DNA of 64,000 bases, from NCBI GenBank assembly GCA_963771355.1, contig CAVYTA010000004.1, positions 224,001-288,000 of the forward strand. Reading direction: 5' to 3'. Origin of the DNA: an uncultured Candidatus Rokubacteria bacterium (GTDB lineage Bacteria; Methylomirabilota; Methylomirabilia; Rokubacteriales; CSP1-6). Both the position numbers and the translations under genes were made by a program. The notes under the pieces are model-generated. The model saw nothing but the letters and a program-made list of their open reading frames with translations. It was not told where the DNA came from and made no database searches. Below, one piece after another: positions 16,880-38,621 of the stretch. Numbering within the stretch: the first letter of the stretch is position 1; every line of letters begins with the position of its first letter.

Positions 16880-17854
16880 ATGACAGTTTGTCGGCTGGTC
16901 GTCGCGTTGTTGCTGCTTCTCCTCCCGTGTTCCGCCGGAGCCCAGCAAGCCACGAGGATTCCACGCATTGGCGTTCTCAGCCCGGCGCCGATCGGGGCGG
17001 CCTCGGCGTCCCCGTTCTCCGCCCTTCGGGACAAGCTGCGTGAGCTTGGTTACATCGAGGGCCAGAATATAGCGCTGGAGTTCCGCCTCGCAGATGGTCA
17101 CCTCAACCGGTTGCCCGAACTCGCCGCAGATCTCGTCCGCCTACGAGTCGACGTCATCGTGACCGACGGTGGGGATTCCGTGGCTCGTGTCGCTGCGGCT
17201 GCCACCAAGACCATTCCGATCGTGATGGGGACCTCGACTGATCCCGTGGCGAGTGGCCTGGTGGCCAGCATCGCCCAGCCAGGCGGCAACGTCACCGGAT
17301 TCATGCTCCCGTACGCGGACCTCGCAGGAAGACGGTTGCAGCTCCTCAAGGAGATGGTCCCAACCGTCAGCCGCGTAGCTGTCTTGTGGGATGCGGACTC
17401 CGGCGAGCCCCAGCTCCGTGCCGCGGCTGCCGCAGCACCGGCGCTCGGCCTCCACCTCGAGTCCCTGCCGGTGCGCGACCGCGCAGATCTCGACACCGCG
17501 TTCGAAAAGGCCCGTCGCCAGGGCGCCGGGGCCCTGCTGCAGTTGGCCTCGCGGCGGCTGTCCGACAACAGGAAGGCGATCGCCGAACGCGTGCTCAGAT
17601 ATCGACTTCCCGGTGTGTTCGAGCTCGGATTCGCCGAAACTGGTGTCCTCGCCTCCTATGGACCGAGGACCGCGGACAACTTCAGCCGGGCCGCCCTCTA
17701 CGTCGACAGGATCCTGAAGGGCGCGCGCCCCGGCGACCTTCCGGTGCAGTATCCCCTCACGTACTACCTGGAGATCAATCTCCGAACCGCCAAATCTCTC
17801 GGGCTCACGATGCCGCCCTCGGTACTGCTGCAGGCAACGCGGGTCATCGAGTGA
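16880..17854 (+). CDS. Orphan ABC transporter substrate-binding protein (ABC_sub_bind type), cassette 1
   Basis: Signal peptide; LRELGYIEGQN, LPELAADLVRL.VDVIV, DPVASGLVASIAQPGGNVTG, YVDRILKGARPGDLPV, INLRTAKSLGL. Confidence 0.9.
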   Translation: MTVCRLVVALLLLLLPCSAGAQQATRIPRIGVLSPAPIGAASASPFSALRDKLRELGYIEGQNIALEFRLADGHLNRLPELAADLVRLRVDVIVTDGGDSVARVAAAATKTIPIVMGTSTDPVASGLVASIAQPGGNVTGFMLPYADLAGRRLQLLKEMVPTVSRVAVLWDADSGEPQLRAAAAAAPALGLHLESLPVRDRADLDTAFEKARRQGAGALLQLASRRLSDNRKAIAERVLRYRLPGVFELGFAETGVLASYGPRTADNFSRAALYVDRILKGARPGDLPVQYPLTYYLEINLRTAKSLGLTMPPSVLLQATRVIE

Positions 17855-17897
17855 CGCCGCCGTGAAGGGTGTGCCGAGCCAATGCGACGAATCAGCC

Positions 17898-17955
17898 GCC
17901 CAACTCCTGCATTCAGCCGACGCGCTATCGCGCGCGGCTGATGCGGGCGTTGGAC
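17898..17955 (+). other. attC site 1
   Basis: GCCCAAC tcc TGCATTCA GCCGACGCGC tatc GCGCGCGGC TGATGCG ggc GTTGGAC; imperfect palindrome with two extrahelical bases. Confidence 0.9.
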
Positions 17956-17976
17956 GACAACAATAGGTAAACAACG

Positions 17977-18603
17977 TTGAAGCTCCCACCCTTGCCAATC
18001 TTGTCCGACCTGGACGGCACGCTGATTGATTCGAAGGCCTCTGTGGTTGCCGCCTTCCGGTGGTGGGCGGAATCGAAAGGTCTTCCTGCCGATACCGCCT
18101 CGCGCATTCCGTTTGGAAGAACATCAACGGACGCGGCGGCGGTACTTGCGCCACACCTAGATCACATCAAGGAAGGCGCCCTACTTGATCAACGGCAGGA
18201 GCAAGACACCGCCGGCGTCATTGCGCTGGACGGCGCAAGCGAACTCCTTTCATCGCACGACAACTTGGCCATCGTTACGTCCTGTCCACGCCGTCTTGCG
18301 GAAGCTCGGCTGAAAGCAGCGAAGCTACCGACGCCTCGCTTCCTCATCACGCCGGAATGCTGGTCTCGCGGCAAGCCTGACCCTGAGCCCTACTTGCGAG
18401 GAGCGCAGGCGCTTGGTACTGCACCTGAGGCGTGCATCGTGCTGGAGGATGCGCCGTCCGGGGTTGAATCTGGAGTCAGGGCAGGAATGCGAGTCATAGG
18501 AATACTTACAACTCACACGGCGCAGCAACTCTCGGCCGCAACGTGCCTCATCAAGTCCCTGCGTGAGCTTCCAGATGCTTTGCGGTCCGTAAGCAATCAG
18601 TGA
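17977..18603 (+). CDS. HAD-family sugar-phosphatase-like hydrolase (cassette)
   Basis: DLDGTLIDS, IVTS, GKPDPEPY, EDAPSG. Confidence 0.9.
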   Translation: MKLPPLPILSDLDGTLIDSKASVVAAFRWWAESKGLPADTASRIPFGRTSTDAAAVLAPHLDHIKEGALLDQRQEQDTAGVIALDGASELLSSHDNLAIVTSCPRRLAEARLKAAKLPTPRFLITPECWSRGKPDPEPYLRGAQALGTAPEACIVLEDAPSGVESGVRAGMRVIGILTTHTAQQLSAATCLIKSLRELPDALRSVSNQ

Positions 18604-18610
18604 AGTTGTC

Positions 18611-18706
18611 GTCCAACCCATCGCTGCAGCGGACGGTCCCGCCTTCGGCGGTCCTTCCCTCCGCGCGCTTCGCGCGCGTCGGCGCCGCTGAGCTTAGTCG
18701 TTAGGC
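18611..18706 (+). other. attC site 2
   Basis: GTCCAAC..GCTGCAGCGG...CCGCTGAGC..GTTAGGC with two internal TTC-loop hairpins. Confidence 0.9.
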
Positions 18707-18709
18707 GTC

Positions 18710-19009
18710 ATGACGCCAATTACTCCAGCAGTCTCGCAGAAGATCGATGCACTCTTTCTGCCAGAGAGCAGAGACGCAGCGCGGCGACTGCTCGCGGAGC
18801 GGTGCGGGACTGACCTTCCCCTTTCGACTCACATGGGACCCGATCCTTCCGGCTTTGACCGCGTTCGCTTTGCAGTCCTGAAGCTGTCACGCGGGGACTT
18901 GGAGCGGCTGCGGCGAGAGATAGAGGGCGCGCACTGCGACTGGCGTGACACTTTGATGGCGGCTGGGTTCGGCGAGGACATTCATGCACATTTGCAATGG
19001 AACCCTTGA
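18710..19009 (+). CDS. Hypothetical protein (cassette)
   Basis: ORF fills the space between attC2 and attC3; RVRFAVLKLS.GD...DWRDTLMAAGF. Confidence 0.75.
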   Translation: MTPITPAVSQKIDALFLPESRDAARRLLAERCGTDLPLSTHMGPDPSGFDRVRFAVLKLSRGDLERLRREIEGAHCDWRDTLMAAGFGEDIHAHLQWNP

Positions 19010-19010
19010 T

Positions 19011-19102
19011 GCCTAACCATGCGCTCAGCGAACCCGGCCATCGCGCTCTGGTGGCAATCCACGCCTCCCGTGGGCCGGGTCGCTGAGCTTGGGTCGTTAG
19101 GC
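19011..19102 (+). other. attC site 3
   Basis: GCCTAAC..GCTCAGCGAACCCGGCC...GGCCGGGTCGCTGAGC..GTTAGGC. Confidence 0.9.
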
Positions 19103-19122
19103 GCAACAACGAGGAGACTTGC

Positions 19123-19527
19123 ATGTCGCAGGAAGAGAACAAAGCGATCGTGCGGCGATTCTTCGAGGAAGCGTGGAATCAGCAGAACTTGAACGTCATC
19201 GATGAGATCTTCGCTCCGACCGTAGTGTTCAACGGGCAGCCGATCACTCGCGACGCGCTCAAGCAGGCTCTCGCAGGTCGCCGTACCGCGTTCCCCGATA
19301 TCCAGGTTACGGTTGACGATCAGATCGCCGAGGGCGAGAAGGTGTCGACACGCCGGACGTGGCAAGCCACTCACCGGGGTCAGTATCGCGGGATTGCCCC
19401 GACTGGTAAGCAGGTGAAATGGACCCAGATCAGTGTCGTTCGATTTTCCCAGGGCCGGATCGTGGAGGATTGGGCCGTCGCCGACGAGTTGGGCATACTG
19501 CAGCAGCTGGGAGCGTTGCCCACGTGA
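19123..19527 (+). CDS. SnoaL-like ester cyclase (cassette)
   Basis: EENKAIVRRF, AFPD, IAEGEKV, GIAPTGK, LGILQQLG. Confidence 0.9.
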   Translation: MSQEENKAIVRRFFEEAWNQQNLNVIDEIFAPTVVFNGQPITRDALKQALAGRRTAFPDIQVTVDDQIAEGEKVSTRRTWQATHRGQYRGIAPTGKQVKWTQISVVRFSQGRIVEDWAVADELGILQQLGALPT

Positions 19528-19559
19528 CGAGTGCTTGCGAAGGACGCGGCAGCCTCGGT

Positions 19560-19630
19560 GTCCAACACAGCAGTGCAGCGGACGGCGCGCTCACGTTGCT
19601 CGCCCGCCGCCGCTGACCGCAGCGTTAGGC
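19560..19630 (+). other. attC site 4
   Basis: GTCCAAC..GTGCAGCGGACGGCG..CTCACGTTGCTCG..CGCCGCCGCTGAC..GTTAGGC. Confidence 0.88.
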
Positions 19631-19655
19631 CGACTCGCCCGATTTCGCAGACTTG

Positions 19656-19904
19656 ATGAGCACTCAAGAGGGGCTCCGTGTCATTGCCACGCTCATCGGC
19701 GGTGGCTTCCTCGCATACGCTGCTATAGCCGTCTTTAGAGGAACGCTGTATGACGTGGACGACGGGCATGTCGACCGGGCTACACGGCCAGTCACTTTCT
19801 GGCTGTTAGTGTTCGGCATGACCCTCCTCGGGTTAGTTATCCTGGGTGTCGGCTGGGAGTGGCCGATCGTGGGCACCATAGTCCGGACGATGGGCACCTC
19901 CTGA
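19656..19904 (+). CDS. Small two-TM membrane protein (cassette)
   Basis: Two hydrophobic helices; lies between attC4 and attC5. Confidence 0.65.
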   Translation: MSTQEGLRVIATLIGGGFLAYAAIAVFRGTLYDVDDGHVDRATRPVTFWLLVFGMTLLGLVILGVGWEWPIVGTIVRTMGTS

Positions 19905-19940
19905 CCAAGGTTGTCCATGCCACAACCTGAAGCGCATCGT

Positions 19941-20042
19941 GCCTAACAACGTGGGTGCAGAGGACACCGGGCGCGCCACGGTTTGGCGAATCTTCTGGGA
20001 TGCGGCGCCGCCCCCGGCGCCTCTGACCTACCTTCGTTAGAC
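19941..20042 (+). other. attC site 5
   Basis: GCCTAAC..GGTGCAGAGGACACCGGG...CCCGGCGCCTCTGACC..GTTAGAC. Confidence 0.85.
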
Positions 20043-20059
20043 GGATAGAGGAAGAGAGA

Positions 20060-20626
20060 GTGTGGCGACCGAGTAGACTGGGCAGCATCATCGCGGAACG
20101 TCGGCTGAGGCTAGTGCGGCGCCGGAAACGGGCCCGCACTGTCCGCGTCAGATTCGGTCGCCCGCTCAGGTCCCCACAAGCCGAACGTAAGGATCCGTGG
20201 TGGTGCCCCGTCGAAATCGCCGGCTTGGGCAGGCGTAGGCTGAGGTCGATTGCCGGTGAAGATTCCCTCCAAGCGCTTGTCCTGGCGTTCCAGTTCGTCA
20301 CTCTCACTCTCCCTGCGGAGGCAGAGCGTGCTGGTGGCCGTATCGAATGGCTGGGCGAACGTGAGAGTCTGGTGTTTGCACACACGCGCTTGCTCAACAT
20401 GGCGAGCGACGCCTTAGAGAATCTCGCGAGTGGGCTCACGGAGGCGGTCGGCATTCTGGAGAATGGCGGAGCCCGTCGTCCCGGCGCGAGGGCGGTTGTT
20501 CGCCGGTTGAGGGCGCTCATTGCGTCAGGTGGCTACACCTCCGATCATCGGCGTGTCTCGGCACCGTCCAACAGCGCGTTGGAGGCGGACGCGCCGCGAC
20601 GGCGCTCCACTCAACGCGGACGTTAA
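20060..20626 (+). CDS. DUF6968-like protein (cassette); ORF reads through attC6
   Basis: WWCPVEIAGLG...IAGEDSLQALVLA; stop TAA lies within the attC R' box. Confidence 0.65.
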   Translation: MWRPSRLGSIIAERRLRLVRRRKRARTVRVRFGRPLRSPQAERKDPWWCPVEIAGLGRRRLRSIAGEDSLQALVLAFQFVTLTLPAEAERAGGRIEWLGERESLVFAHTRLLNMASDALENLASGLTEAVGILENGGARRPGARAVVRRLRALIASGGYTSDHRRVSAPSNSALEADAPRRRSTQRGR

Positions 20627-20628
20627 GC
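20566..20628 (+). other. attC site 6
   Basis: GTCCAAC AGCGCGTTGGAGGCGGACGCGCCG cga CGGCGCTCCACTCAACGCGGAC GTTAAGC. Confidence 0.85.
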
Positions 20629-20646
20629 GTCAATCTGGATCGAGGT

Positions 20647-21315
20647 GTGAAGATGACACGAATACGAGTCGAGAGTTTTGCCATCTCACTTGACGGATAC
20701 GGAGCTGGTCCGAATCAAGACATCAATAATCCGCTTGGTGCGGGCGGGACTGAGTTGCACCAATGGGCATTTCCGACGCGCACATTCCAGCGGAAACTCT
20801 TTGGCGCCGACAGCGGCGCTACGGGGATCAATGACGACTTCGCCGCACGTGGCTTCAGGAACGTCGGTGCATGGATTCTCGGAAGGAACATGTTCGGACC
20901 GGTTCGCGGAGCCTGGCCGGACATGAACTGGAAAGGTTGGTGGGGGGACAATCCGCCATACCATGTTCCAGTCTTCGTCCTGACTCATCACGCCCGCCCG
21001 CCTATTCAGATGGAAGGCGATACCACGTTCCATTTCGTCACGGACGGCATTCACGAAGCGCTGGATCGGGCGCGGAAGGCAGCCAACGGGATGGATGTGC
21101 GCATTGGCGGTGGGCCCCACACCATACAGCAGTACCTTCGTGCTGGCCTCGTGGATGAGTTGCATATCGCTATCGCGCCCATCCTGCTAGGTGGAGGAGA
21201 GCGACTGTTCGAGGGAGTCGACTTGCGATCTCTTGGATACAGCTGCGTCGAGCACGTGCCCTCAGAGAAGGCAACCCATGTTGTGCTCCGGCGCCGGGGT
21301 CAGAGTGACGCCTAA
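20647..21315 (+). CDS. Dihydrofolate reductase / RibD C-terminal family protein (cassette)
   Basis: ISLDGYGAGP, ILGRNMF, PVFVLTHH, VRIGGG, GLVDELHIAIAPILLGGGERLF. Confidence 0.9.
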   Translation: MKMTRIRVESFAISLDGYGAGPNQDINNPLGAGGTELHQWAFPTRTFQRKLFGADSGATGINDDFAARGFRNVGAWILGRNMFGPVRGAWPDMNWKGWWGDNPPYHVPVFVLTHHARPPIQMEGDTTFHFVTDGIHEALDRARKAANGMDVRIGGGPHTIQQYLRAGLVDELHIAIAPILLGGGERLFEGVDLRSLGYSCVEHVPSEKATHVVLRRRGQSDA

Positions 21316-21371
21316 CAACCGGTTGCACGGAGGGCGCTCCGCGCCGCCGCTGAGTGGGGGGTCGGTGAGGC
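21310..21371 (+). other. attC site 7 (degenerate R' GTGAGGC)
   Basis: GCCTAAC AACCGGTTGCAC...CCGCTGAG...GTGAGGC. Confidence 0.65.
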
Positions 21372-21394: not shown

Positions 21395-22384
21395 GTGTCA
21401 GGGTCCTGGGTCGGGCCCTTCGTTCTCGCCCTTTTGATGCTGGCCGTCCCCCTCGCCGTAGGAGCGCAGCCGACGGGGAAGGTGGCCCGCATCGGCATCT
21501 TCGGGGACAAGGCGGCGGACGCCTCCGAGAAGCATCTCTGGCAGGTCTTCCGCGACGGCCTGCGCGAGCACGGATGGTCCGAGGGCGCCAACCTCGCCAT
21601 CGAATACCGGTGGGCCGAGGGTAATGCCGCGCGGCTTCCGGAGCTGGCGGCGCAGCTGGTCCGGCTCAAGCCGGATGTGATCGTGACGCGGGGCTCGCTG
21701 TTCACCGGCGCCCTGAAGGCCGCGACATCCTCCATTCCCATCGTGTTCGTCGGCCACGCGGATCCTGTGGAGACCGGCCACGTCGCGAGCCTCGCCAGGC
21801 CGGGCGGAAACATCACCGGGATGGCGGTGCTCCAGACCGAGCTCGGCCCCAAGGGCCTAGAGCTCCTGCACGCCGTCGTCCCCTCGGCCACGCGTGTCGC
21901 CGTGCTGTGGCACCAGGGCACTCCGTCAGCCGTGCCCGGGCTCAAGGCGCTGGAGGGTCCAGCGCGAACGCTCGGCCTCAAGCTGCAGCCCGTCGGGGCG
22001 CGGAGCGCCGGTGAGCTGGAAAGCGCCTTCGCGACCATGGCCAAAGCTGGCGCGGAAGCCGCGCTGGTCTTCAACACCGTCCCGTTCAACAACGCGAGGG
22101 GGCGCATCGTGGAGCTAGCCGGCGCGCATCGGCTGCCGACGATGTACCAGGGAAGGCTCTTCATAGAGGCCGGCGGTCTGATGAGCTACTACCCGAAACA
22201 CGAGGACTTCTGGCGGCGTTCCGCCGCGTACGCGGACAAGATCCTCAGGGGCGCGAAGCCGGCCGACCTCCCGGTCGAGCAGCCGACGAAGTTCGAGCTG
22301 ATCATCAATCTCAAGACCGCCAAAGCGCTTGGCCTCACGATCCCGCAACCGGTGTTGGCTCGCGCCGATGAGGTCATCGAATGA
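21395..22384 (+). CDS. Orphan ABC substrate-binding protein, paralog 2 (cassette)
   Basis: Same family motifs as 16880-17854 (ASLARPGGNITG, YADKILRGAKPADLPVEQPTKFELIINLKTAKALG, RADEVIE). Confidence 0.9.
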   Translation: MSGSWVGPFVLALLMLAVPLAVGAQPTGKVARIGIFGDKAADASEKHLWQVFRDGLREHGWSEGANLAIEYRWAEGNAARLPELAAQLVRLKPDVIVTRGSLFTGALKAATSSIPIVFVGHADPVETGHVASLARPGGNITGMAVLQTELGPKGLELLHAVVPSATRVAVLWHQGTPSAVPGLKALEGPARTLGLKLQPVGARSAGELESAFATMAKAGAEAALVFNTVPFNNARGRIVELAGAHRLPTMYQGRLFIEAGGLMSYYPKHEDFWRRSAAYADKILRGAKPADLPVEQPTKFELIINLKTAKALGLTIPQPVLARADEVIE

Positions 22385-22432
22385 GCGCGACCGATAAGCA
22401 TGCGATCCCAGCTTGCGTCGACATATTCGGGC

Positions 22433-22505
22433 GTCGAACTTCCCGCTGCAGCGGACCGGAGGCTCGCGTTGCTCGCCCTCCGGCCGCTGAGCGCGAGCGT
22501 TAGCC
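22433..22505 (+). other. attC site 8
   Basis: GTCGAAC..GCTGCAGCGGACCGGAGG CTCGCGTTGCTCG CCCTCCGGCCGCTGAGC..GTTAGCC. Confidence 0.88.
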
Positions 22506-22510
22506 AGCGC

Positions 22511-22837
22511 ATGGAATCATCGAACACGCTCTTCGCCGTCGTTCGCGTGCGTGGCGCGGCCTGGGAGCCGGCCCGTCAAATGCGCGAACAGCGCGCTTGG
22601 CAAGAACATGCTGCGTTCATGAATGCCCTCGCGGCCAACCGATTCATCGTCTTAGGTGGCCCGCTCGGCGACGGGCAACGCGTGCTCCTCATTGTCGAGT
22701 CAAACTCCGAGGCCACGGTTTGCAGTCGCCTTGCACTCGATCCTTGGTCAACAATGGACCTCTTGCGCATTGAGAGCGTCCATCCGTGGAGAGTTCTTCT
22801 TGACCGCAATTCCACGAATCAGCCGCATGGTGGCTAA
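22511..22837 (+). CDS. YciI-like protein (cassette)
   Basis: EHAAFMNAL, LGGPLGDG, LALDPW. Confidence 0.75.
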   Translation: MESSNTLFAVVRVRGAAWEPARQMREQRAWQEHAAFMNALAANRFIVLGGPLGDGQRVLLIVESNSEATVCSRLALDPWSTMDLLRIESVHPWRVLLDRNSTNQPHGG

Positions 22838-22910
22838 CCCTTCGTTACACCCGACCTCGCTACGGCTGGCTTCGCCAACCTCCGCGAGCGGGTGAACTCA
22901 AACGTTGGGT
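22832..22910 (+). other. attC site 9
   Basis: GGCTAAC CCTTC GTTACACCCGACCTCGC...GCGAGCGGGTGAAC TCAAAC GTTGGGT. Confidence 0.9.
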
Positions 22911-22963
22911 CTCAACCGTCAGGAGCGTCGCGCTGCGACCAATCTGCGACTGAAAGGCGCCGA

Positions 22964-23566
22964 TTGCCGAAAGCAAAAACTCTCCTGCTGATCGCACTCT
23001 GCCTCGCGCTCGCCGGCGCGGCACGCGCGGAGGACTGGTCGGCGTGGCAGCGCGCCCACGATCCGGCGACGCGCACGCGCTTCATTCCCGTGGAACTCTG
23101 GACCGGCGCGCCTTGGGACGGCACGCAGGAGATCCGCATGGCGCCCGCGGCGCTCGAGTTCGGGCGGCAGGGAGACAAGAGCATCAAGGGGCCGACGACC
23201 TGGAACGGTATCCAGGTCTACGAGCGCCTGAACCGCGACAAGCTCCAGCTCTTCGCCATCCGCGACGACCGGACGGGCCTCGGTCGCGTTTTCGACTCGC
23301 GCTATCCGCAGCTCGGCTGCCGCGGCGAGGTGAAATTTCCGCTCGGCCGCTGGAAGCAGGGCGAGGTGCGCGAGTACCAGCTCGACTGCGCGCGCGGTAA
23401 GCGCCCGCTCAGAGTGGCGATCGAGGAGATCGACTTCGTCTACGACGGCGTGCCACACTCGCTGCGCTTCCACTGGCTCTTCATGGAAGGGCGCGGCCGC
23501 GGCACCGATATGCGCTACGTGTATAGCCCGCTGCGCGGGCTGGTCGACGTGCAGGGGAACGAGTAG
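22964..23566 (+). CDS. Secreted hypothetical protein (cassette); start uncertain
   Basis: Signal peptide LLLIALCLALAGAARA; RFIPVELWTG, KFPLG.W. Confidence 0.7.
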   Translation: MPKAKTLLLIALCLALAGAARAEDWSAWQRAHDPATRTRFIPVELWTGAPWDGTQEIRMAPAALEFGRQGDKSIKGPTTWNGIQVYERLNRDKLQLFAIRDDRTGLGRVFDSRYPQLGCRGEVKFPLGRWKQGEVREYQLDCARGKRPLRVAIEEIDFVYDGVPHSLRFHWLFMEGRGRGTDMRYVYSPLRGLVDVQGNE

Positions 23567-23586
23567 GCATAGGGGTTCGAAAGTCA

Positions 23587-23675
23587 GCCTAACAACTGAT
23601 TGGAGCGGGCGGCGTTGATGGATGGATGGTCAAGTCGAGATGCTGACAGCGCCGCCGCTGAGTGCAACACTAGGA
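23587..23675 (+). other. attC site 10 (R' mutated to ACTAGGA)
   Basis: GCCTAAC..TTGGAGCGGGCGGCG...CGCCGCCGCTGAG.. Confidence 0.65.
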
Positions 23676-23687
23676 CTCGGAGGAGAA

Positions 23688-24137
23688 ATGGTGATGAGTG
23701 CACAAGGGGTCGTTGTACTGCCGGGACAGGGCTCGGTCTGGAACATATCGCAGGACCGATCGCTCGTGCTCAAGCTCTTGGGCGGAGCGACCGGAGGCAG
23801 CATCATGCTGTTCGAGGAGACCGTTCCCGCAGGGACGAAGAGCTGGTTCCACCTGCATCATGACAGCGACGAGGTAGCCTACGTCCTGAGCGGCGAGATC
23901 ACATTCAAGATTGGCGACGAGGTCACCGCCGGTGGTCCCGGCACCTGCGCCTTCATGCCGCGCGGCGTCCAGCACGCCTGGAAGAACAGCGGCGCGGAAG
24001 CCGGACGGGTGCTGTTCCTCTACACCCCGGCCGCGGCGGGTGGGCTGGTTGAGGAGCAACAGCGGACGCATGAGCGTGCGGGGACCGAGTTGCTCCAGCG
24101 TCACGGCTGGGAGATCGTCGGACCCAATCCGCTCTAA
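23688..24137 (+). CDS. Cupin domain protein
   Basis: HLHHDSDEVAYVLSGE, PRGVQHAW. Confidence 0.9.
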   Translation: MVMSAQGVVVLPGQGSVWNISQDRSLVLKLLGGATGGSIMLFEETVPAGTKSWFHLHHDSDEVAYVLSGEITFKIGDEVTAGGPGTCAFMPRGVQHAWKNSGAEAGRVLFLYTPAAAGGLVEEQQRTHERAGTELLQRHGWEIVGPNPL

Positions 24138-24172
24138 CTGTCTTCAAGAACTTAGCGGAGCGCTGGGATGCC

Positions 24173-24223
24173 GTCTAGCAAGCCGTTAGAGCGGGGCCGG
24201 CCGTCTGCGCCGATCCGTTAGAG
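24173..24223 (+). other. Degenerate attC remnant
   Basis: GTCTAGC AAGCC GTTAGAGCGG...GCGCCGATCC GTTAGAG; internal deletion. Confidence 0.55.
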
Positions 24224-24312
24224 CGCAAATCATTCTTCTCAACCCCATCAACACTAGGCTACCTATCAGAGTCATTGCTGCTGCACTATCCCTCTCCACG
24301 GTCGCGTGCGCC

Positions 24313-25951: not shown

Positions 25952-25957
25952 GGACGG

Positions 25958-26008
25958 AGACCCTCGCGCTCGAGCGGACGCGCTTCGCGCGCGACCGGGA
26001 CATTAGAG
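25958..26008 (+). other. Degenerate attC remnant
   Basis: GCTCGAGCGGACGCGC TTC GCGCGC-GACCGGGAC ATTAGAG. Confidence 0.5.
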
Positions 26009-26016
26009 GGAGCCGG

Positions 26017-29489: not shown

Positions 29490-29499
29490 GGCCGGTGTG

Positions 29500-29976: not shown

Positions 29977-30067
29977 GGGGACGGGACCGGGTGAGAGAGG
30001 AGCCATCAAAGTAAGCTATGGCCATGTGGGTGGGACATACACGACCAGCTAACCTCGGAGGGCCTCC

Positions 30068-30871: not shown

Positions 30872-30873
30872 CC

Positions 30874-30917
30874 GCTCAACCCCGCATGCCGTCGACGCCG
30901 TTCCGCCGGCGTTAGGG
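30874..30917 (+). other. Shortened attC remnant
   Basis: GCTCAAC CCCGCATGC...CGCCGGC GTTAGGG. Confidence 0.45.
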
Positions 30918-30925
30918 CGCTGCCC

Positions 30926-31744
30926 GTGCTGGCCACCCTCAGACAGGCTCGCCGCGCGGACATTCCGGCGATGCATCGTGTTCGGCTCGCCGTGCGTGAG
31001 AACCGGCTCACCTCGAGGATCACCGAAGAGGACTATATTCCGGCGATCGAGGAAACCGGTCGTGGGTGGGTCGTCGAAGTCGACGGTGGGGTGGTAGGCT
31101 TTGCGGTCGGAAACGCGGCGACCGGGAACATCTGGGCATTGTTCGTGGATCCCGCGCATGAAGGTCAGGGCCATGGCCGCCGCTTGCACGATGCCATGGT
31201 CGAGTGGCTGTTCTCTCGCGGTCTCGAGCGGCTATGGCTCAGTACCGATCCCAACACACGTGCCCACCGGTTCTACGAGTCGGCGGGATGGCGGCATACG
31301 GGTATGCTCGCCAACGGCGAAGCAACCTTTGAGCGCCATGCTCCAATCGGCCCGCACCCTATGCCGGGGAGGTCAGGAGGCATGATCAAGTTCGATCATC
31401 TCAGGATCCCGGTCACTGATCTGGCGCGCTCGCGCGACTGGTACATTCGCACGCTGGGCCTGAAGGTCGAGTTCGAGGTTCCGGACCGGCAGACGGTCGC
31501 GCTCCAGGACAGCGACGGCTTTACGATCTTTCTTCAGGAGGTACCCCCTCCCGTCGTGCCAAACCAGTGCGCTCTGTGGTTTCAGGTCACCGATGTCGAC
31601 ACCATGTTCACGGACTGGTCCGCACGAGGAGTCGAGTTCGCCCATAGCCCGCGCAAGTCCTACTGGGGCTACGGGGCCGAGCTCGTCGATCCCGACGGGT
31701 ACTTGATTCGGCTCTGGGACGAGCATTCGATGAAGGCAAAGTGA
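30926..31744 (+). CDS. GNAT acetyltransferase fused in frame to a VOC/glyoxalase protein
   Basis: WALFVDPAHEGQGHGRRL...FYESAGW; internal AGGAGG plus ATG 31382 starts MIKFDHL...YWGYGAELVDPDGY. Confidence 0.8.
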   Translation: MLATLRQARRADIPAMHRVRLAVRENRLTSRITEEDYIPAIEETGRGWVVEVDGGVVGFAVGNAATGNIWALFVDPAHEGQGHGRRLHDAMVEWLFSRGLERLWLSTDPNTRAHRFYESAGWRHTGMLANGEATFERHAPIGPHPMPGRSGGMIKFDHLRIPVTDLARSRDWYIRTLGLKVEFEVPDRQTVALQDSDGFTIFLQEVPPPVVPNQCALWFQVTDVDTMFTDWSARGVEFAHSPRKSYWGYGAELVDPDGYLIRLWDEHSMKAK

Positions 31745-31769
31745 CGGGGTTGCCGAACAGAGGGCGTGG

Positions 31770-32321
31770 ATGGCTACTCTCGAAGAGTACAGCGGGCTCC
31801 CGATAGAGGCTCGTCTCCGACGTCTGGAGCAGACGCCGGGCGAGCTGGAGCGCGACCTGTCTGGAAAGACGGACGCCGAGCTTTCCCGGCGCCCCGACGC
31901 CCACAATTGGGCCGTCAAGGAAATCGTCTGTCACCTGCGTGATGTCGAGGAGCTCTTCCAGATCCGGTTCCACACCGTGGTGGCCCTCGACGAGCCTCGC
32001 ATCCTCGTGCTGGGGGCGCGCGCGAACGACCTGGCGGCCTGGCGGATCGGAGGCGCGATTGGCCACCCGCTCGATCCGGGGCGGTGGGCCGAGGAGCGCC
32101 AGTATCTCCGCAACGACACCGGTGAGGCGCTGGCCGCATTTCAGCGGCGCCGGACCGAGGTCTTGGTGCTCCTGCGTTCCCTCTCGCCGGCGGAATGGCA
32201 GCGCGGAGGTATTCATCTCAGCCAGGGTCGCCTCACTCTGGCGGACTGGGTGGCCAGGCTCGCCGCGCACGATGACAACCACGTCACCCAGCTCCGCCGC
32301 GCACTCGAAGGTCGGGCATGA
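31770..32321 (+). CDS. DinB family protein
   Basis: WAVKEIVCHLRD.E, AHDDNH..Q. Confidence 0.85.
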   Translation: MATLEEYSGLPIEARLRRLEQTPGELERDLSGKTDAELSRRPDAHNWAVKEIVCHLRDVEELFQIRFHTVVALDEPRILVLGARANDLAAWRIGGAIGHPLDPGRWAEERQYLRNDTGEALAAFQRRRTEVLVLLRSLSPAEWQRGGIHLSQGRLTLADWVARLAAHDDNHVTQLRRALEGRA

Positions 32322-32360
32322 AGTCGGAGCGGTGGTAGGATCGCCCGAAGGGGATCTCAC

Positions 32361-32768
32361 ATGGCATCGATTCGTAAAGAGATCGTAGTCGAGGTCAGCC
32401 CGGAGAATGTCTGGGCGGCGGTTCGCGATGTCGGCGCAATCCATGTGCGCCTGGTACGGGGCTTCGTGGTCGACTGTCGCCTGGAAGGCGACGCCCGGAT
32501 CGTCACCTTTGCCAATGGGTTGGTCGTACGCGAGCTGATCGTGGACGTCGACGACACCGCGCGCCGGCTGGCATGGGCGGTGGTGGGAGGACCGCTCACG
32601 CACCACAATGCGTCGGTGCAGGTGTTCGCCGAGGGGGCTGGTCATACCCGGCTCGTCTGGATCGCCGACTTGCTGCCGAACGAGATGGCCGGGACCATCG
32701 ACGGAATGATCCAGCTGGGGATCGTCGCCATGAAGCGGACGCTGGAGGGCAATTCGACGAATGGCTGA
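32361..32768 (+). CDS. SRPBCC family protein
   Basis: ENVWAAVRDVG, RIVTFANG, TRLVWIADLLP. Confidence 0.85.
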   Translation: MASIRKEIVVEVSPENVWAAVRDVGAIHVRLVRGFVVDCRLEGDARIVTFANGLVVRELIVDVDDTARRLAWAVVGGPLTHHNASVQVFAEGAGHTRLVWIADLLPNEMAGTIDGMIQLGIVAMKRTLEGNSTNG

Positions 32769-32827
32769 ACGCAAACGGTGGGCTTCGGGGCTCCCACCCG
32801 CGGCCGTCTAGCTCGGGCGCCGGAGTG

Positions 32828-33154
32828 GTGCTGAGACCTCCCGCGATACTGACGGTGTTGGCCTGCCTGGGTTTGACGACGTGGCCGTCGCTACAAGCGA
32901 CAGAGCGCTGGTACCTGATGTCCCGACATGGGGATTGCGTGGAAGTCGACACCCTCAAGCGCAAGGTGCCCGACCTCGGTGGTATCAACGACCCGCACTC
33001 GTTTGCCGGGCTTATGCGGCAGAAGGGATTCAAGGTGACGTCGATCCCGACCTCGGTGCCGGCAGGACAGGCCCACCAGGTGAGCGTGCCGGAGAAGGAC
33101 TTGTCCTTGATGTTCGTCACATCGGAAGTGTGTCGCGGATCAGGCGTGCGGTGA
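32828..33154 (+). CDS. Secreted hypothetical protein
   Basis: Signal-like N-terminus, two Cys; co-oriented with the array. Confidence 0.5.
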   Translation: MLRPPAILTVLACLGLTTWPSLQATERWYLMSRHGDCVEVDTLKRKVPDLGGINDPHSFAGLMRQKGFKVTSIPTSVPAGQAHQVSVPEKDLSLMFVTSEVCRGSGVR

Positions 33155-33245
33155 ACGGCCGCCCCGCCGAGGCGAAGGTGAGTGACGGTGCACCATCGAC
33201 TCGAAGCAGCGCGGCGCGGTTCCCGCGCGGGCGTCTCCGGCTTAG

Positions 33246-33632
33246 ATGCTGATCCTGGTGGTCGGCCTGCTGGTTCCGGTAGCGATGGTGGCACTGTACC
33301 GGTACTTCGTGAGGAAGCGGGATGGGCGGGCTCGGTGGCGCTCGGCCGCCACGATCGGCGCATCGGTTGGCATCACGCGCGCGGTGTTGGCCTGTACGGG
33401 GTGGTACGTAGTCGAGCACACGGGCGGACCACTTCAGATCCCGGCTTTCGCGCTGGCGATGTTGGCATGGCCCGAAGCGATTGTGTTCGGCCGGCATCGA
33501 GGCCCTGTTCCGCTGAGTTTCTATCCCGTGCTTGCACTTCTGCTCATCGTGACATCTATGTCGCTGGTGACCAGTGTGGCTCTCGCGGCACACGCCAGCC
33601 ACGGGCAGCGCGCCGCCCGGAGCGGATCATGA
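33246..33632 (+). CDS. Hypothetical membrane protein
   Basis: Several hydrophobic segments. Confidence 0.6.
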   Translation: MLILVVGLLVPVAMVALYRYFVRKRDGRARWRSAATIGASVGITRAVLACTGWYVVEHTGGPLQIPAFALAMLAWPEAIVFGRHRGPVPLSFYPVLALLLIVTSMSLVTSVALAAHASHGQRAARSGS

Positions 33633-34291
33633 GCGATGACGAGGTTGACCAGACATGGGTCTCGCGCGAGGCCGCCGTGTGTAGTTCGAGGGCGCGGAAG
33701 GCTTTGGTCGCGGCTTTTGTCGCTCTGCTCATAGCGAGCCTGGCGGCGGCTGGCGTCGCCGACGCGGCCGCCGGACCGGGGCGCCCCAGTCTTCCCCAAG
33801 TTCCCTATGAGGACCACGGTGCGTGTCCCTTCGAGTGCTGCACCTATCGGACGTGGACGGTCAAAGCCGATACACCGGTCCGCACGGATCGCCGGGACAC
33901 CGCCCCGGTGGCCTTTCGTGTCCGTCCGGGCGAGCAGGTAAATGGTCTCACGGGCGTCGTGGTCACGAGGAAGCTGGGTAGGGCCACGATCCGGGAGCCG
34001 ATAGTCGTCGAGACGGACAAGCTCGCGCTTGAACCCGGTGAAGCAGTGTCCGTCGTCAACTACATCGGCGAGGGAGTGTGGAAGATCTGGGCGCGGGGAC
34101 GACTTTACCACCTTGAGATCGCGAGCAAGGAGCACACCTGCGCTGGGCACGCCCGAACACCCGGTCCATGTGCCGCCCAGATCGTCGAGGAACCGGAGAC
34201 CGTGTGGTGGGCGAAGGTACGCAACCGCGGTGGGCAGGAAGGTTGGACGCGACAGCTGGATCACTTCGGTCAGATCGACGCTTGCGGCTAG
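33629..34291 (+). CDS. Secreted hypothetical protein (SH3-like beta protein)
   Basis: GACPFECCTY..W, YIGEG..KIW, WWAKVRN..GQEGW, DACG. Confidence 0.7.
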   Translation: MSDDEVDQTWVSREAAVCSSRARKALVAAFVALLIASLAAAGVADAAAGPGRPSLPQVPYEDHGACPFECCTYRTWTVKADTPVRTDRRDTAPVAFRVRPGEQVNGLTGVVVTRKLGRATIREPIVVETDKLALEPGEAVSVVNYIGEGVWKIWARGRLYHLEIASKEHTCAGHARTPGPCAAQIVEEPETVWWAKVRNRGGQEGWTRQLDHFGQIDACG

Positions 34292-34358
34292 ATCCCGTGC
34301 TCGCAAGGGCTGAACCACGGTGGGACAGAGGACTTCGAGAGGGCATGGGCGGTCGTCG

Positions 34359-34796
34359 ATGCTGAACCTGTTCGGCTTCCTGGCGGTGGGGTGCTGCGGC
34401 TTGTTCGCCGGCGCCGCGCTCTACGTCAACCTGGTCGAGCATCCGGCTCGAATGAGCTGCGGCGTGGACCTTGCGCTCCGTGAGTGGGCGCCCAGCTACA
34501 AGCGTGCCTCGGTCATGCAGGCGTCCCTTGCCGTGATCGGCGGCGTGGCCGGCGTGTTGGCGTGGGCGCTCCTGGGCGGTCTCGGCTACCTCGTCGGGGC
34601 TCTCCTCCTGCTGGCGGTGGTGCCGTTCACACTTCTCGTCGTCTTCCCGACAAACAAGCGCCTCCTGGAGCTCCATGCCGAAGGTCAGATTGGTAACGCG
34701 CGCGAGCTGCTCAAGCGGTGGAACGCGCTTCACGCGGTACGGACCGCATTGAGCGTGGTGGCATTCGTCTTGATGCTGCGTGCGCTCAGGGGGTAG
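34359..34796 (+). CDS. DUF1772 (anthrone oxygenase-like) membrane protein
   Basis: GLFAGAALYVNLVEHPAR, PTNKRL, WNALHAVRT. Confidence 0.85.
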   Translation: MLNLFGFLAVGCCGLFAGAALYVNLVEHPARMSCGVDLALREWAPSYKRASVMQASLAVIGGVAGVLAWALLGGLGYLVGALLLLAVVPFTLLVVFPTNKRLLELHAEGQIGNARELLKRWNALHAVRTALSVVAFVLMLRALRG

Positions 34797-34973
34797 ATGC
34801 CAAGTCGGCACCGCCCCCGTCCCCGGCGCGCGATGGTCGCTGGTGTTATGGTTTGTGATGATGATTGCCCGCTGACGCGACTCTTGTGACGATGCGGGGC
34901 TCGTCAACCTGCAAACCTCTTCACGCCTGGTGGCCGAGCTTCGCGGTTGGCGCGACGGATAGAGGAGAAACAC

Positions 34974-35507
34974 ATGGCCGAGCCCCTGAAGGCACTGAAC
35001 CTGAAACGCTGGATCGACGAACACCGTCACCTGTTGAAGCCTCCGGTAGGGGCTGAGGTGATCTGGAAGGACTCCCAGTTCATGGTCATGCTCATCGGGG
35101 GCCCGAACGCGCGCCGAGACTTCCACATCGACCCGCGCGATGAGTTCTTTTACCAGCTTGAAGGCGACATGATCCTGGAGCTCATCGACGAAAGAGGCAA
35201 GAGACAGCGGGAGAAGATCCGGGAGGGAGACGTACTTCTGTTACCGGCCAATACTCCTCATTCTCCACAGCGGCCGGCGAACACGGTGGGCTTGGTGGTG
35301 GAGCCCGTCCGAGGCCCGCATGAACCTGAAAGCTACGCCTGGTACTGTGAGCAGTGCGACGCCAAGCTGTACGACATGTCCAGGGGGGAGGGCGACCTCC
35401 TGCTGGACCTGCGAAGGGTGTCGGAGAAGTTCAATGCGAGTGAAGCGCTTCGAACATGCAGGCCCTGCGGTTACGTGCAGCCGGTGGCGACGGGCCCCCG
35501 CTTGTAG
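34974..35507 (+). CDS. nbaC: 3-hydroxyanthranilate 3,4-dioxygenase
   Basis: LLKPPVG, GGPNARRDFH, EFFYQLEGDM, PHSPQR, rubredoxin-like CxxC pairs. Confidence 0.9.
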   Translation: MAEPLKALNLKRWIDEHRHLLKPPVGAEVIWKDSQFMVMLIGGPNARRDFHIDPRDEFFYQLEGDMILELIDERGKRQREKIREGDVLLLPANTPHSPQRPANTVGLVVEPVRGPHEPESYAWYCEQCDAKLYDMSRGEGDLLLDLRRVSEKFNASEALRTCRPCGYVQPVATGPRL

Positions 35508-35580
35508 TTCGAATGGTCCCGTCGCCCTTGTCGCGAACTCTCGCGGCGGTTCGACAACATCATTCTGGGGAGGAACAGCC

Positions 35581-35880
35581 ATGATCATGCGGATCACGTG
35601 GGGCAAGCTCCGGCCCGGCTCATGGAACGAGTTCGAGAGGACGTACAAGGCGACGGTGGCCGCCAAGGGGGGCACCAGCAAAGGCCTGCGTGGACGGTGG
35701 CTCATGCAGGACACGGCCGATGCGGATACGGGGTTCGCGGTCAGCCTGTGGGAAAACGCGGCGGAGATGCAGGCCTACGAGAAGAGCGATCTCTACCAGA
35801 AGGAGTTCGCGCCCGCCCTCCAGCCGTTCTTCGTCGGGGAGTACAAGACCTATCGCTGTGAGGTCAAGTACATGCAATAG
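35581..35880 (+). CDS. Antibiotic biosynthesis monooxygenase (ABM)-like protein
   Basis: MIMRITWGKLRPGSW...SLWE; GGAGG RBS. Confidence 0.75.
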   Translation: MIMRITWGKLRPGSWNEFERTYKATVAAKGGTSKGLRGRWLMQDTADADTGFAVSLWENAAEMQAYEKSDLYQKEFAPALQPFFVGEYKTYRCEVKYMQ

Positions 35881-35908
35881 CCCGCGCATGGCGGCGCGGT
35901 CGCACACG

Positions 35909-36022
35909 CCCAGGGCCCGGGGGGTCCTCGATACCGATCTGACCGGGAAGAACGCGAGCTTCTCGAATGCGACGATCTTCGTCGGTCTCGTGGAGTGGGC
36001 CGACAAAGTCCTCACGGAATAG
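35909..36022 (+). pseudogene. 3' fragment of a DsrE-like protein
   Basis: ARGVLDTDLTGKNASF...LVEWADKVLTE* resembles a DsrE/F C-terminus; 5' part missing. Confidence 0.5.
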
Positions 36023-36084
36023 TAGCGCGGTCAACCGGACCTACCGGCGAGCCACCGGCAACACCTCGAAAGGAGCACGGGCCG

Positions 36085-36498
36085 ATGCCGCTGCAGGACA
36101 TGTACCCCGTCATCGTCACGCCCCAGCACAAGGAGTGCCGGGACTTCTATGCGCGCTGGTTCGAAGCCGCCGTCGTGTTCGAGGCGTCGTGGTTTGTCCT
36201 TCTGGCATTGCCCGGCGATCCGCCGCGGACGGTGGCCTTCATGGCCCCCGACCATCCCTCCTCGCCTCCAGGCCCCGAAACCTTCAACGGCACGGGTCTC
36301 TTCCTCACGTTCCAGGTCTCGGATGCGGCCGCGGAGTACGCGCGGCTCGAGCAGGGGGGCGCGACGTTTGTCTACGCGTTGCGAGACGAACCGTGGGGCC
36401 AGCGTCGCTTCGCACTGCGGGATCCGTCGGGTTGCTGGGTTGATGTGGTGGAGCAAACGGAGCCGGCGCCGGGCTTCTGGGATCCCTATGTCTCGTAG
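36085..36498 (+). CDS. VOC/glyoxalase family protein
   Basis: RDFY, LRDEPWGQRRFALRDPSG. Confidence 0.88.
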   Translation: MPLQDMYPVIVTPQHKECRDFYARWFEAAVVFEASWFVLLALPGDPPRTVAFMAPDHPSSPPGPETFNGTGLFLTFQVSDAAAEYARLEQGGATFVYALRDEPWGQRRFALRDPSGCWVDVVEQTEPAPGFWDPYVS

Positions 36499-36514
36499 CG
36501 CCGCGCCCTGAGCG

Positions 36515-36994
36515 GTGAACCCCTCGGCTCCCGACCACCCCGCGAACACCGGCCTGCGTCGCCACTGCCAGGCGCAGGCTCAGCGATCGGGCATGCCGCC
36601 GCTCGCCTCTCCCGATGAGGTCGTGCGACCGTACGAGACGCTGGGCACGCATCCTGATCTGGTCGCCCGACTCTGGGACGAGCTCCCGGCCGAGCTGCCC
36701 GTGGATTGTCGAGTGGTCTTCTACGGCATGCCCGTCTTGATGCACCCCACGACGGGCATCGTGTTCGGCTTCGCGGGCGGCACCCACACCTACGCGCTCC
36801 GACTTCCCGAGCGGGAACGGGCGGAAGCGCTCCAAGCCGGCGCCACCCGGATCAAGCACTACCGTTCGGTCCAGATCAGCTTCGATCTCGACGACATCGG
36901 GCCAGAGTGGGTATTTTGCGGGTGGTTCAAGGGCGAGGAAGCGTGGTGTCGTTCGGCGTTCGAGAGCGCGGGTTCTCAAGGGAGCAGAGTATGA
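36515..36994 (+). CDS. Hypothetical protein
   Basis: LGTHPDLVARLW...FAGGTHTYALRLP. Confidence 0.7.
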   Translation: MNPSAPDHPANTGLRRHCQAQAQRSGMPPLASPDEVVRPYETLGTHPDLVARLWDELPAELPVDCRVVFYGMPVLMHPTTGIVFGFAGGTHTYALRLPERERAEALQAGATRIKHYRSVQISFDLDDIGPEWVFCGWFKGEEAWCRSAFESAGSQGSRV

Positions 36995-37054
36995 AGACCA
37001 CCTCGAGCCCTGGCGGCTGAAGCGGGACGGGTGCGGTCGAGAGGCCGTCGCGCC

Positions 37055-37612
37055 ATGGAGCTGGTCTGGCCTTCCCCGCAGCACCTCGAAAGCTATGTCG
37101 CCGCCCTCGAGCGCGGCTGGTCGCCCGACAACGTTCGCGGTGAGACGGCCGCGCGCGAGGAGCTGAGGTCGATCGCCACCGACCCCGCCGCATTCCTCGC
37201 CGGTCTGGTGGACCGTGAGGCAAAGGGCTCGCCCATCACCCTTCCCGACGGCTCGAGGGTCCCACGCCTTCCCGGGTATCGTCGTTGGATGTGGGATGGT
37301 GAGTTCTGCGGGAGCATCGGCTTTCGCTGGCAGCCCGGGACCCCGGCGCTCCCGCCACATTGCCTGGGGCACGTAGGATACGCGGTCGTTCCTTGGAAGC
37401 AGGGAAGAGGGTATGCAACACTCGCGCTCAGGCTATTGCTGCCAGAGGCCCGCGCGGAGGGGTTGCCGTTCATCGAGCTCACCACCGACCCGACGAACAT
37501 GGCCTCTCAGCGAGTCATCCGGGCCAATGGTGGTGTTCTGGTCGAACGCTTCACAACGCCCGCCCAGCTCGGGGCGACTGAGACCCTCCGGTTCAGAATC
37601 ACGCTGTCATGA
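37055..37612 (+). CDS. GNAT family N-acetyltransferase
   Basis: GHVGYAVVPWKQGRGYAT, N.ASQRVI..NGG. Confidence 0.88.
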   Translation: MELVWPSPQHLESYVAALERGWSPDNVRGETAAREELRSIATDPAAFLAGLVDREAKGSPITLPDGSRVPRLPGYRRWMWDGEFCGSIGFRWQPGTPALPPHCLGHVGYAVVPWKQGRGYATLALRLLLPEARAEGLPFIELTTDPTNMASQRVIRANGGVLVERFTTPAQLGATETLRFRITLS

Positions 37613-37622
37613 AAGGGGGGAC

Positions 37623-38621
37623 ATGACAAGAAGGTTGCCGGTCATGCGGAGGCTCCGGGTATTCGTGGCCATCGTGCTCGGCCTCCTCTGCGTGCCCTCT
37701 CCGTCCGAGGCTCAGCGGTCCGCCGGGATCGCCCGGATCGGCTACCTCACCCCCACCTCGCAGCCGGCGCGTGAGGAAGTGTTCCGCCAGGAGCTGCGCC
37801 GGCTCGGCTACGCCGAGGGCCAGAATTTTGTCCTGGAGTACCGGTCGGCAAATGGGGACTTCGACCGGCTGCCGGACCTCGCGGCGGAGCTGATCGCGCT
37901 CAACGTGGACGTCCTGGTCACGGTGGTGACTCAGGCCGCTCTGGCGGCAAAGAAGGCGACGGCCACGATCCCCATCGTCATGGTGGGCGTGTCCGACCCC
38001 GTCGGGGTCGGGCTGGTCGCGAGCCTCGCGCGACCGGGCGGCAATGTCACGGGAACGTCGTCCCTGGCGGCCAATGTGGTGGGAAAGCAGCTCGAGTCAT
38101 TGCGAGAGATGCTGCCCAAGGTCTCCCGGGTGGCCACCCTCTGGAACCCGGCGAATCCTGTGTTCCAGAAGCTCCAGCTGGGAGAGGTCAAGGCGGCCGC
38201 CGCGAAGCTGCGGCTGCAGATCCAGCTCTTCGAGGCCCGGACCCCCGACCGGCTGGATCACGCCTTCACGTCGATGGCGAGGCAACGCCCGGAGGCGCTC
38301 CTTGTCCTGGGGGATCCGATGTTCGGCGCGCACTGGGCGCGGATTGCCGAGCTGGCCGCCCGGCACCGCATGCCGACGGTGAGCGGGACGCGAGAGTTCG
38401 CGGACGCCGGTGGCCTCATGACCTATGGACCGGACTACTTCGAGGCGTACCAGCGGGCCGGCCGGTACGTGGACCAGATCCTGAGGGGCGGCCGGCCGGC
38501 CGACCTTCCCGTCGAACAGTCCACCAAGTTCGAGCTGGTCATCAATGCCCGGACGGCGGCGACGCTCGGGATCACCATCCCACGGTCGCTGGTCGGGCGC
38601 GCCGACCGGGTGGTGGAGTGA
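37623..38621 (+). CDS. Orphan ABC substrate-binding protein, paralog 3
   Basis: LRRLGYAEGQN, DPVGVGLVASLARPGGNVTG, PADLPVEQSTKFELVIN, RADRVVE. Confidence 0.9.
   Translation: MTRRLPVMRRLRVFVAIVLGLLCVPSPSEAQRSAGIARIGYLTPTSQPAREEVFRQELRRLGYAEGQNFVLEYRSANGDFDRLPDLAAELIALNVDVLVTVVTQAALAAKKATATIPIVMVGVSDPVGVGLVASLARPGGNVTGTSSLAANVVGKQLESLREMLPKVSRVATLWNPANPVFQKLQLGEVKAAAAKLRLQIQLFEARTPDRLDHAFTSMARQRPEALLVLGDPMFGAHWARIAELAARHRMPTVSGTREFADAGGLMTYGPDYFEAYQRAGRYVDQILRGGRPADLPVEQSTKFELVINARTAATLGITIPRSLVGRADRVVE

Follow-up and report, generated by a model that had tools for sequence, protein, structure and literature searches.

The 64,000-nt stretch of DNA analysed here (the window; positions 224001-288000 of contig C4 in genome G000, which comprises 5.53 Mb in 8 contigs and is listed as 99.8% complete) holds an integron array that has lost its integrase gene, together with three genes of the PF04392 (ABC_sub_bind) family. 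With moderate confidence we propose that two of them, genes 1 and 2, are cassettes in this integrase-deleted array and that the family, with 35 copies in the genome, provides periplasmic co-receptors for a dCache sensor kinase and not components of an ATP-binding cassette (ABC) importer. The initial annotation had described all three as orphan ABC substrate-binding protein genes travelling in cassettes, and had suggested that integron mobilisation drives the expansion of the family, whose members would plug into a shared transporter or sensor. That account was largely real and is partly confirmed here, but it was overstated; its interpretation is partly supported, and it overlooked the loss of the integron integrase from window and genome, as judged by the TIGR02249 cut-off.

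All three genes lie on the plus strand, score above the Pfam cut-off for PF04392 and encode proteins that start with an apparent export signal (seen by eye only). Gene 1 (16880-17854; Pfam E 5.5e-38) occupies the first cassette, and the matched ends claimed for it were found: the cassette start GTTGGGC at 16824-16830 is complementary in 7/7 positions to the left box GCCCAAC of its own attC site at 17898, and the attI motif is that of G002, a sister genome of the same genus that served as reference for synteny of the integron locus. Among the 120 best matches to gene 1 were dozens of full-length homologs with 59-94% identity, and the gene therefore represents a maintained, intact subtype. Its model (predicted local distance difference test score, pLDDT, 95.9) has a type I binding-protein fold, with template modelling (TM) scores of 0.85-0.87 against the Phe-, Trp- and Tyr-binding proteins 3LKV, 3LFT and 6HNI (0.87 for 3LKV). 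Gene 2 (21395-22384, from a putative GTG start; E 1.6e-45), 44% identical to gene 1, lies between attC7 and attC8, where it had been placed, with 48 nt between its stop codon and attC8 (66 bits). Its cassette ends mismatch at three of seven positions and attC7 is degenerate. PF04392 cassettes of other genomes share the left box of attC8, and the most fitting reading of gene 2 is therefore that of a cassette whose upstream boundary has decayed. Parts of genes 1 and 2 are covered by contigs from RNA runs, which cannot show transcription.

The third gene did not bear out its description as a cassette. Gene 3 (37623-38621; E 1.4e-47, scored on the longer open reading frame 37413-38621; 46% identical to gene 1) is followed by no attC site in the covariance-model scan and lies 8.1 kb beyond the last scored one. 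It overlaps by 4 nt an LLM-class oxidoreductase gene (38618-39559, plus strand; open reading frame list and Pfam) and, together with the LLM and RpiB genes beside it, is syntenic with G002 (85.7% over 37618-39998). Gene 3 is now a fixed gene of the array tail, possibly an old cassette. The scores obtained here for the NF041285 equivalog, 102-151 bits, stay below its cut-off of 390 bits, as do those of both operon-borne controls (291 and 289 bits).

Upstream of gene 1, a remnant of the 3' end of intI is present at 16569-16637 on the plus strand, that is, the cassette strand. It is 91.8% identical over 73 nt to the 3' end of the G002 intI gene, and 15/16 residues agree with IntI residues 300-315 of genome G010. 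The remnant is followed by an attI platform (16650-16830, plus strand; recombination core 16824-16830) with four homologous copies in the genome. In G002, where the flank corresponding to 8001-16500 of the window is syntenic, the orthologous locus has an intI gene, encoded on the cassette strand and with the same attI motif directly after it; that gene is frameshifted in its assembly and may not be intact. By homology to this post-intI site we take the upstream site of the window to be attI, and the locus to be a true integron platform from which the integrase gene has been deleted. No match to TIGR02249 above the curated cut-off was obtained anywhere in G000, the window keeping only the last intI codons; among the 21 genomes searched, four had such a match. 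Three tyrosine recombinases of G000 were rejected as IntI candidates, scoring far below the cut-off and having no match over the IntI-specific segment. An assembly artefact was likewise rejected, with contigs of other studies bridging the junction (16313-16637 with 0 differences, and 16580-17951, including gene 1, with 2 differences). No sigma-70 consensus promoter was found in 16480-16900.

The four homologous attI platforms of G000 (the window copy, C6:1214152-1214333, C6:2498448-2498626 and C8:125033-125227) are each followed by attC sites, and none has an intact intI; a second platform keeps a different intI remnant. At C6:2498449 the upstream DNA is orthologous in G002 and a further genome, G003, and intI is missing in all three. 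The first cassette differs between them: G000 and G002 carry PF04392 genes that are not sisters, and G003 has a different gene. This turnover is compatible with cassettes captured by an integrase supplied in trans, although intI may have been lost on three separate occasions. The array of the window is likely frozen without its own integrase unless one arrives in trans. That PF04392 genes always take the first place was not borne out, as they do so at 3 of the 8 attI platforms seen. Two side observations concern such platforms: in G002 an attI-like site lies mid-array (L061:8151-8166), directly after a PF04392 gene and in the place of an attC site, and in G136 (L146:1157-1744) a piece of intI is joined directly to the 3' half of a PF04392 cassette gene, another platform deletion.

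Elsewhere in the genome, a paralog at C6:309219-310199 overlaps by 4 nt a gene encoding a sensor with the order transmembrane segment, dCache, transmembrane segment, HAMP, GAF and kinase (C6:310196+). Among 33 related loci, the sensor gene comes immediately after the PF04392 gene at all 27 with 65-94% identity and at none of the six with 32-39%. Conversely, a PF04392 gene lies immediately upstream of 13 of the 28 sensor homologs taken from relatives; one homolog has it within 0.9 kb and 14 have none, two of the latter sitting near a contig edge; 6 of the 13 coupled homologs fall outside the ortholog set of this sensor. Sister sensors occur both with and without an upstream paralog. On a Rhizobium plasmid, a relative overlaps a gene for a dCache-HAMP-cyclase, and the sensor region of that protein shares 32-40% identity with the two G000 kinases; a Sinorhizobium relative lies tail-to-tail with a homologous cyclase gene. 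The sensor-linked proteins fall inside the expanded clade together with the cassette-borne ones (Shimodaira-Hasegawa-like approximate likelihood ratio test, SH-aLRT, 98 in a quick tree), and expanded-clade members linked to sensors were seen in G001, G006 and Rhizobium. Because 27 of 27 close orthologs are coupled to the sensor, and the Rhizobium relatives to a dCache cyclase homologous to it, the family probably functions as co-receptors in the manner of LuxP. Gene coupling of the LuxPQ kind, which is tight and concerns one subfamily of dCache sensors, was seen with one paralog and the relatives of that paralog; the three genes of the window do not show it. Of 89 other genomes of the same family, 74 gave a match to the sensor; at least three paralogs occur in 66 of these 74 and in 6 of the 15 others, in a tally that scored copy numbers up to 14 and in which kin are not independent and genomes are incomplete.

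No paralog adjoins the second sensor gene of G000 (C6:1255535-), which is followed by genes for a response regulator and a receiver-cyclase. The row of dCache-HAMP-GAF kinase, response regulator and receiver-cyclase (L106:5675-9536; C6:1251674-1255535, minus strand) is a candidate for cyclic-nucleotide output. At loci L128 and L130-L133, a distant branch of this dCache sensor family follows a gene that by eye resembles another type of binding protein. In G012 a run of several PF04392 genes and fragments ends directly at a dCache sensor gene (L116), and in G000 weak, fragmented PF04392 matches are followed by a HAMP-like match and two genes (L035; C4:21389-24631), perhaps a decayed third pair of binder and sensor.

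The source genome has 49 PF04392 matches, 35 of them at E 1e-20 or better, and the census confirms the marked expansion of the family in Rokubacteria that the initial annotation had put forward. A genome-wide count of paralogs next to attC sites versus permeases had also been proposed. An attC site within about 100 nt of the stop codon was found for 5 of 34 testable paralogs (one of the 35 was left out at a contig edge) compared to 4 of 2000 sampled control genes (score 20), a strong enrichment in which three of the four control genes with such a site lie in the same arrays, the scanner's training sites include the five paralog sites (the three outside the window first found by a window-only model), and the control set under-samples cassette genes, many of which the gene caller misses. 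In the four arrays, a full paralog precedes 5 of 27 attC sites (three of them with weak scores, E 0.12-0.33), for which the hypergeometric P is 7.8e-7 given 35 paralogs among 5146 called genes. The cassettes in first and second place at C6:2498449 are PF04392 genes, each with matching ends. Two whole PF04392 genes, one of them frameshifted, and one fragment precede 3 of 26 attC sites in G002, where a further PF04392 gene is the first cassette of a second platform. Fifteen matches to a stop-plus-attC pattern were obtained, in 13 of 251 phylum genomes (reversed control, 1); 10 of the 12 non-self loci hold a PF04392 gene, three of them split or partial, with a full attC, in 8 genera, and two loci carry two such cassettes in succession. 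Because of the enrichment and of the same cassettes in other genomes, the cassette state is real, enriched and recurrent, yet it is a minority: 5 of 35 full-length paralogs are cassettes, two more lie in array tails (gene 3 and C6:2487479), and about 80% lie outside arrays.

Ten of the 35 paralogs run head-to-tail into the start of another paralog with no attC site between them, and others are single insertions between unrelated genes. An eleventh head-to-tail candidate was discarded, its match being an attC site read in frame. A near-identical stop-start junction makes up 13 of 14 pattern matches, with 19 further matches to the 3' end, one of them that of a counted gene. Copies of this junction, about 60 nt long, were observed at C5:14629, 15600, 989981 and 1004454, at C6:34943, 982234 and 988122, at C7:690790, 714532, 715503, 716477 and 777157, and at C8:1119; many copies at paralog junctions are torn-off ends. 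The junction could be a recombination site or merely conserved coding or translation-coupling sequence. Two paralog runs 65 kb apart have near-identical downstream flanks (C7:711919 and C7:778058), which suggests a duplicated island. In the quick tree, in which 22 of 53 forks are open, the cassette-borne copies are scattered, and two have non-cassette sisters (SH-aLRT 99); a single clade of cassette-borne copies is not supported in an informal comparison. The tree thus shows exchange between cassette and non-cassette states without giving its direction. Since about 80% of the paralogs lie outside arrays and many run head-to-tail, integrons appear to be one of at least two routes and not the main driver that had been proposed, with head-to-tail runs and single insertions accounting for most copies.

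As to the partner of these proteins, the failure to find a permease of the family's own type speaks against the transporter half of the earlier proposal, and the dCache coupling lends specific support to the sensor half. A shared importer, in which the orphans pass their ligands to ABC permeases of the branched-chain type whose genes lie elsewhere, an idea put forward for orphan TctC/Bug proteins, would agree with the fold common to Trp-, Phe- and Tyr-binding proteins of ABC importers, with the 71 BPD_transp_2 and 145 ATPase matches of the genome and with the precedent discussed in PMC5994714. None of these matches lies in the window, as the initial annotation had observed for its three genes. 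For the 32 paralogs outside it, 103 neighbours were called and 88 scanned, 15 short open reading frames being left out; two fused ABC exporter-type genes and one MacB-type permease were present among the 88, but no importer permease, and no paralog was seen in a complete ABC operon with adjacent permease and ATPase genes of the TrpXYZ kind. The outcome that the initial annotation had named as refuting its proposal, most paralogs in complete ABC operons and attC sites not enriched, was not observed. The permeases of two canonical operons (37% mutual identity) have no ortholog in G000 (best E 1.4e-5). With at most 15 candidates scored per genome, one of these two TrpY permeases, taken as query, was found in 4 of 151 phylum genomes, at 41-43% identity, and in none of the 89 other family genomes. 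The aromatic amino acid pocket is not conserved in the family, either: in the comparison that had been suggested, the columns of Glu263 and Tyr279 of CD0873, its specificity residues (PMC6816091), ranked at the 96th and 97th entropy percentiles of 321 columns in our own mapping. Given also that the recurrent gene coupling is to sensors, we regard a shared importer as rather unlikely. Twenty-five conserved columns are not shared by three importer-type proteins, and three of the 25 are present in 13/13 sensor-linked proteins; three controls are too few to call these columns a docking face.

Several observations weigh against the co-receptor reading. The window genes do not lie beside a sensor and average 33-38% identity to sensor-linked paralogs. 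Half of the 28 sensor homologs have no upstream PF04392 gene, five of these following by eye another binding-protein-like gene. The 6 of 15 same-family genomes mentioned above hold at least three paralogs where the sensor was not found, and in family f7, where 16 of 18 genomes have 1-2 PF04392 matches, neither sensor nor TrpY was found. BPD_transp_2 permeases could also be borrowed in G000, one of them being encoded 3.7 kb downstream of a paralog. A different explanation holds that one conserved paralog serves the kinase while the mobile copies buffer periplasmic ligands on their own or turn over with little function; they would spread by recombination at conserved gene ends and ride in cassettes by sheer abundance. 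It draws on the many fragments and torn-off ends, the scattered single insertions, the low GC content of paralogs at third codon positions (median 0.82 versus 0.93) and the general abundance of secreted proteins in cassette pools reported in PMC10661359. Gene 1, however, belongs to an intact subtype with many full-length homologs, members of the expanded clade are sensor-linked in three different hosts, and copy number tracks the sensor, though kinship and incompleteness confound that relation; we regard this explanation as unlikely. The claim that integron mobilisation drives the expansion, most copies being former cassettes that have lost attC, concerns the route and not the function. It would explain the presence of cassette copies across the tree, two with non-cassette sisters, the decay of attC sites along the window array and the two paralogs in array tails. 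We nevertheless hold it to be improbable: 29 of 34 testable paralogs have no downstream attC, the head-to-tail runs have a conserved junction of their own, G001, G004, G006, G007, G015 and G017 have 16-35 copies and no IntI match, and a Bradyrhizobium plasmid has 10 PF04392 matches, integrons being reported as missing from alpha-proteobacteria (PMC4889954).

If the co-receptor reading is correct, each paralog would be exported and would close on its own small ligand, the pocket columns being among the most variable. The protein would dock on the periplasmic dCache domain of C6:310196+ or C6:1255535-, as LuxP does on LuxQ, and capture of a cassette would add or swap an input with the kinase unchanged. 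More tentatively, and with less than even confidence, we envisage plug-in sensing in Rokubacteria, in which one or two dCache kinases serve dozens of binders that differ in their pockets and cassettes bring new modules of this kind into several integrase-less attI arrays served in trans. The integron would in that case serve to rewire the inputs of signal transduction, besides storing stand-alone enzymes, and cassettes that plug into a kinase already present would clearly exemplify integron cargo acting via a host partner. The family is routinely annotated as a component of amino acid ABC uptake, so that the dozens of copies in a soil genome count as transport capacity; that reading would be wrong for an abundant soil lineage if the paralogs are sensor inputs.

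The covariance model used throughout was built from 12 window sites and also detects new attC sites elsewhere in G000 and in other genomes. The 12 sites lie on the plus strand between 17898 and 29489 with 25-68 bits, the next best plus-strand match having 18 bits. With more than one attC site and no neighbouring intI, the array classes as a CALIN (cluster of attC sites lacking an integron integrase). attC1 (17898-17955; 53 bits) has R and L boxes and forms a hairpin with extra-helical bases. Cassettes 2-7 (17977-21315, plus strand; Pfam and attC model) encode a HAD hydrolase, an unknown protein, SnoaL, a second unknown protein, DUF6968 and RibD_C, with attC2-attC6 at 18611, 19011, 19560, 19941 and 20566. 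attC7 (21310-21371; 33 bits), whose right-hand box is degenerate, and attC8 (22433-22505) bracket gene 2. The distal array thins out (22832-29489, with attC9-attC12 at 22832, 23587, 28603 and 29434) and gives way to an attC-less tail of small co-oriented cassette-type genes, among them GNAT, VOC, DinB and cupin genes (29497-37612, plus strand; Pfam and attC scan), with a GC content of 0.65 versus 0.69-0.74 in the flanks. Of ten cassettes checked, five have fully matching ends, four are off at 1-2 positions and gene 2 at three. No clean excision joint at attC sites was seen among the joints listed for the contigs of 8 runs, which cannot show absence; the listed joints resemble cross-matches between paralogs. 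A single open reading frame at 30926-31744 has GNAT and glyoxalase domains, possibly two former cassette genes fused by read-through, and at 28430-28580 a SnoaL-like remnant with an internal deletion resembles, by eye, the cassette gene at 19123-19527. At 22263-22543 contigs of many organisms are recruited by the conserved 3' end of the PF04392 family, which raises the summed contig depth in soil runs to hundreds to thousands; elsewhere it is about 10. Soil and rhizosphere metagenomes hold DNA near-identical to the window, and close orthologs of one G000 gene come from records titled mostly Rokubacteria or Methylomirabilota. The window further contains a complete TRAP transporter set and one MFS gene, and an Rfam search gave no match. 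At 135-2309 a pyridine nucleotide-disulphide oxidoreductase is fused to AIRS/AIRS_C domains, a putative selenophosphate-synthetase-like fusion.

In the literature searched, with most subscription journals outside its coverage, no paper on PF04392 cassettes or on PF04392 together with dCache sensors was found. A term search for 'ABC' was empty in the main texts of three cassette surveys (PMC7370490, PMC10661359 and PMC11089894), and six small supplements of PMC7370490 gave no family match; figures or supplements of the other two could list the family. CALINs, loss of intI as one of their origins and an inverted integrase, with intI on the cassette strand, are described by Cury et al. 2016 (PMC4889954), where intI pseudogenes are given near only 15 of 279 CALINs. 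The window array resembles these in being an attC cluster without intact intI, the gene having once been on the cassette strand; it differs in that attI has been retained, comparison with a sister genome allows the deletion to be mapped, and a single genome has four homologous attI platforms, each with an array. PF04392 structures are reported to bind Trp, Tyr or Phe (PMC10443332), and TrpX to be co-transcribed with permease and ATPase (PMC9382623). The family studied here shares Pfam family and fold with TrpX, CD0873, VC_1101 and SP1069 of TrpXYZ importers (PMC9382623, PMC6816091, PMC10443332), whereas its members have no permease or ATPase partner, unconserved pocket residues and a separate clade. 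Orphan TctC/Bug expansions in Rhodoplanes and Bordetella, for which roles in transport and in sensing have both been proposed (PMC5994714, whose main text does not contain the word 'integron'), are alike in having many orphan binders and few membrane partners but belong to another protein family. The dCache-like kinases stimulated by binding proteins that are treated in PMC8050422, namely LuxP/LuxQ, HptA/HptS, ChvE/VirA and CBP/ChiS, come closest to the arrangement proposed here. The genes of kinase-stimulating binding proteins are stated there to tend to adjoin signalling genes, and its main text names neither PF04392 nor ABC_sub_bind. As in the LuxP/LuxQ type, the gene of a periplasmic binder is coupled to that of a kinase with a dCache domain between transmembrane segments and a HAMP domain. 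Here about 35 binders would face two sensors, and some of the binders are mobile cassettes.

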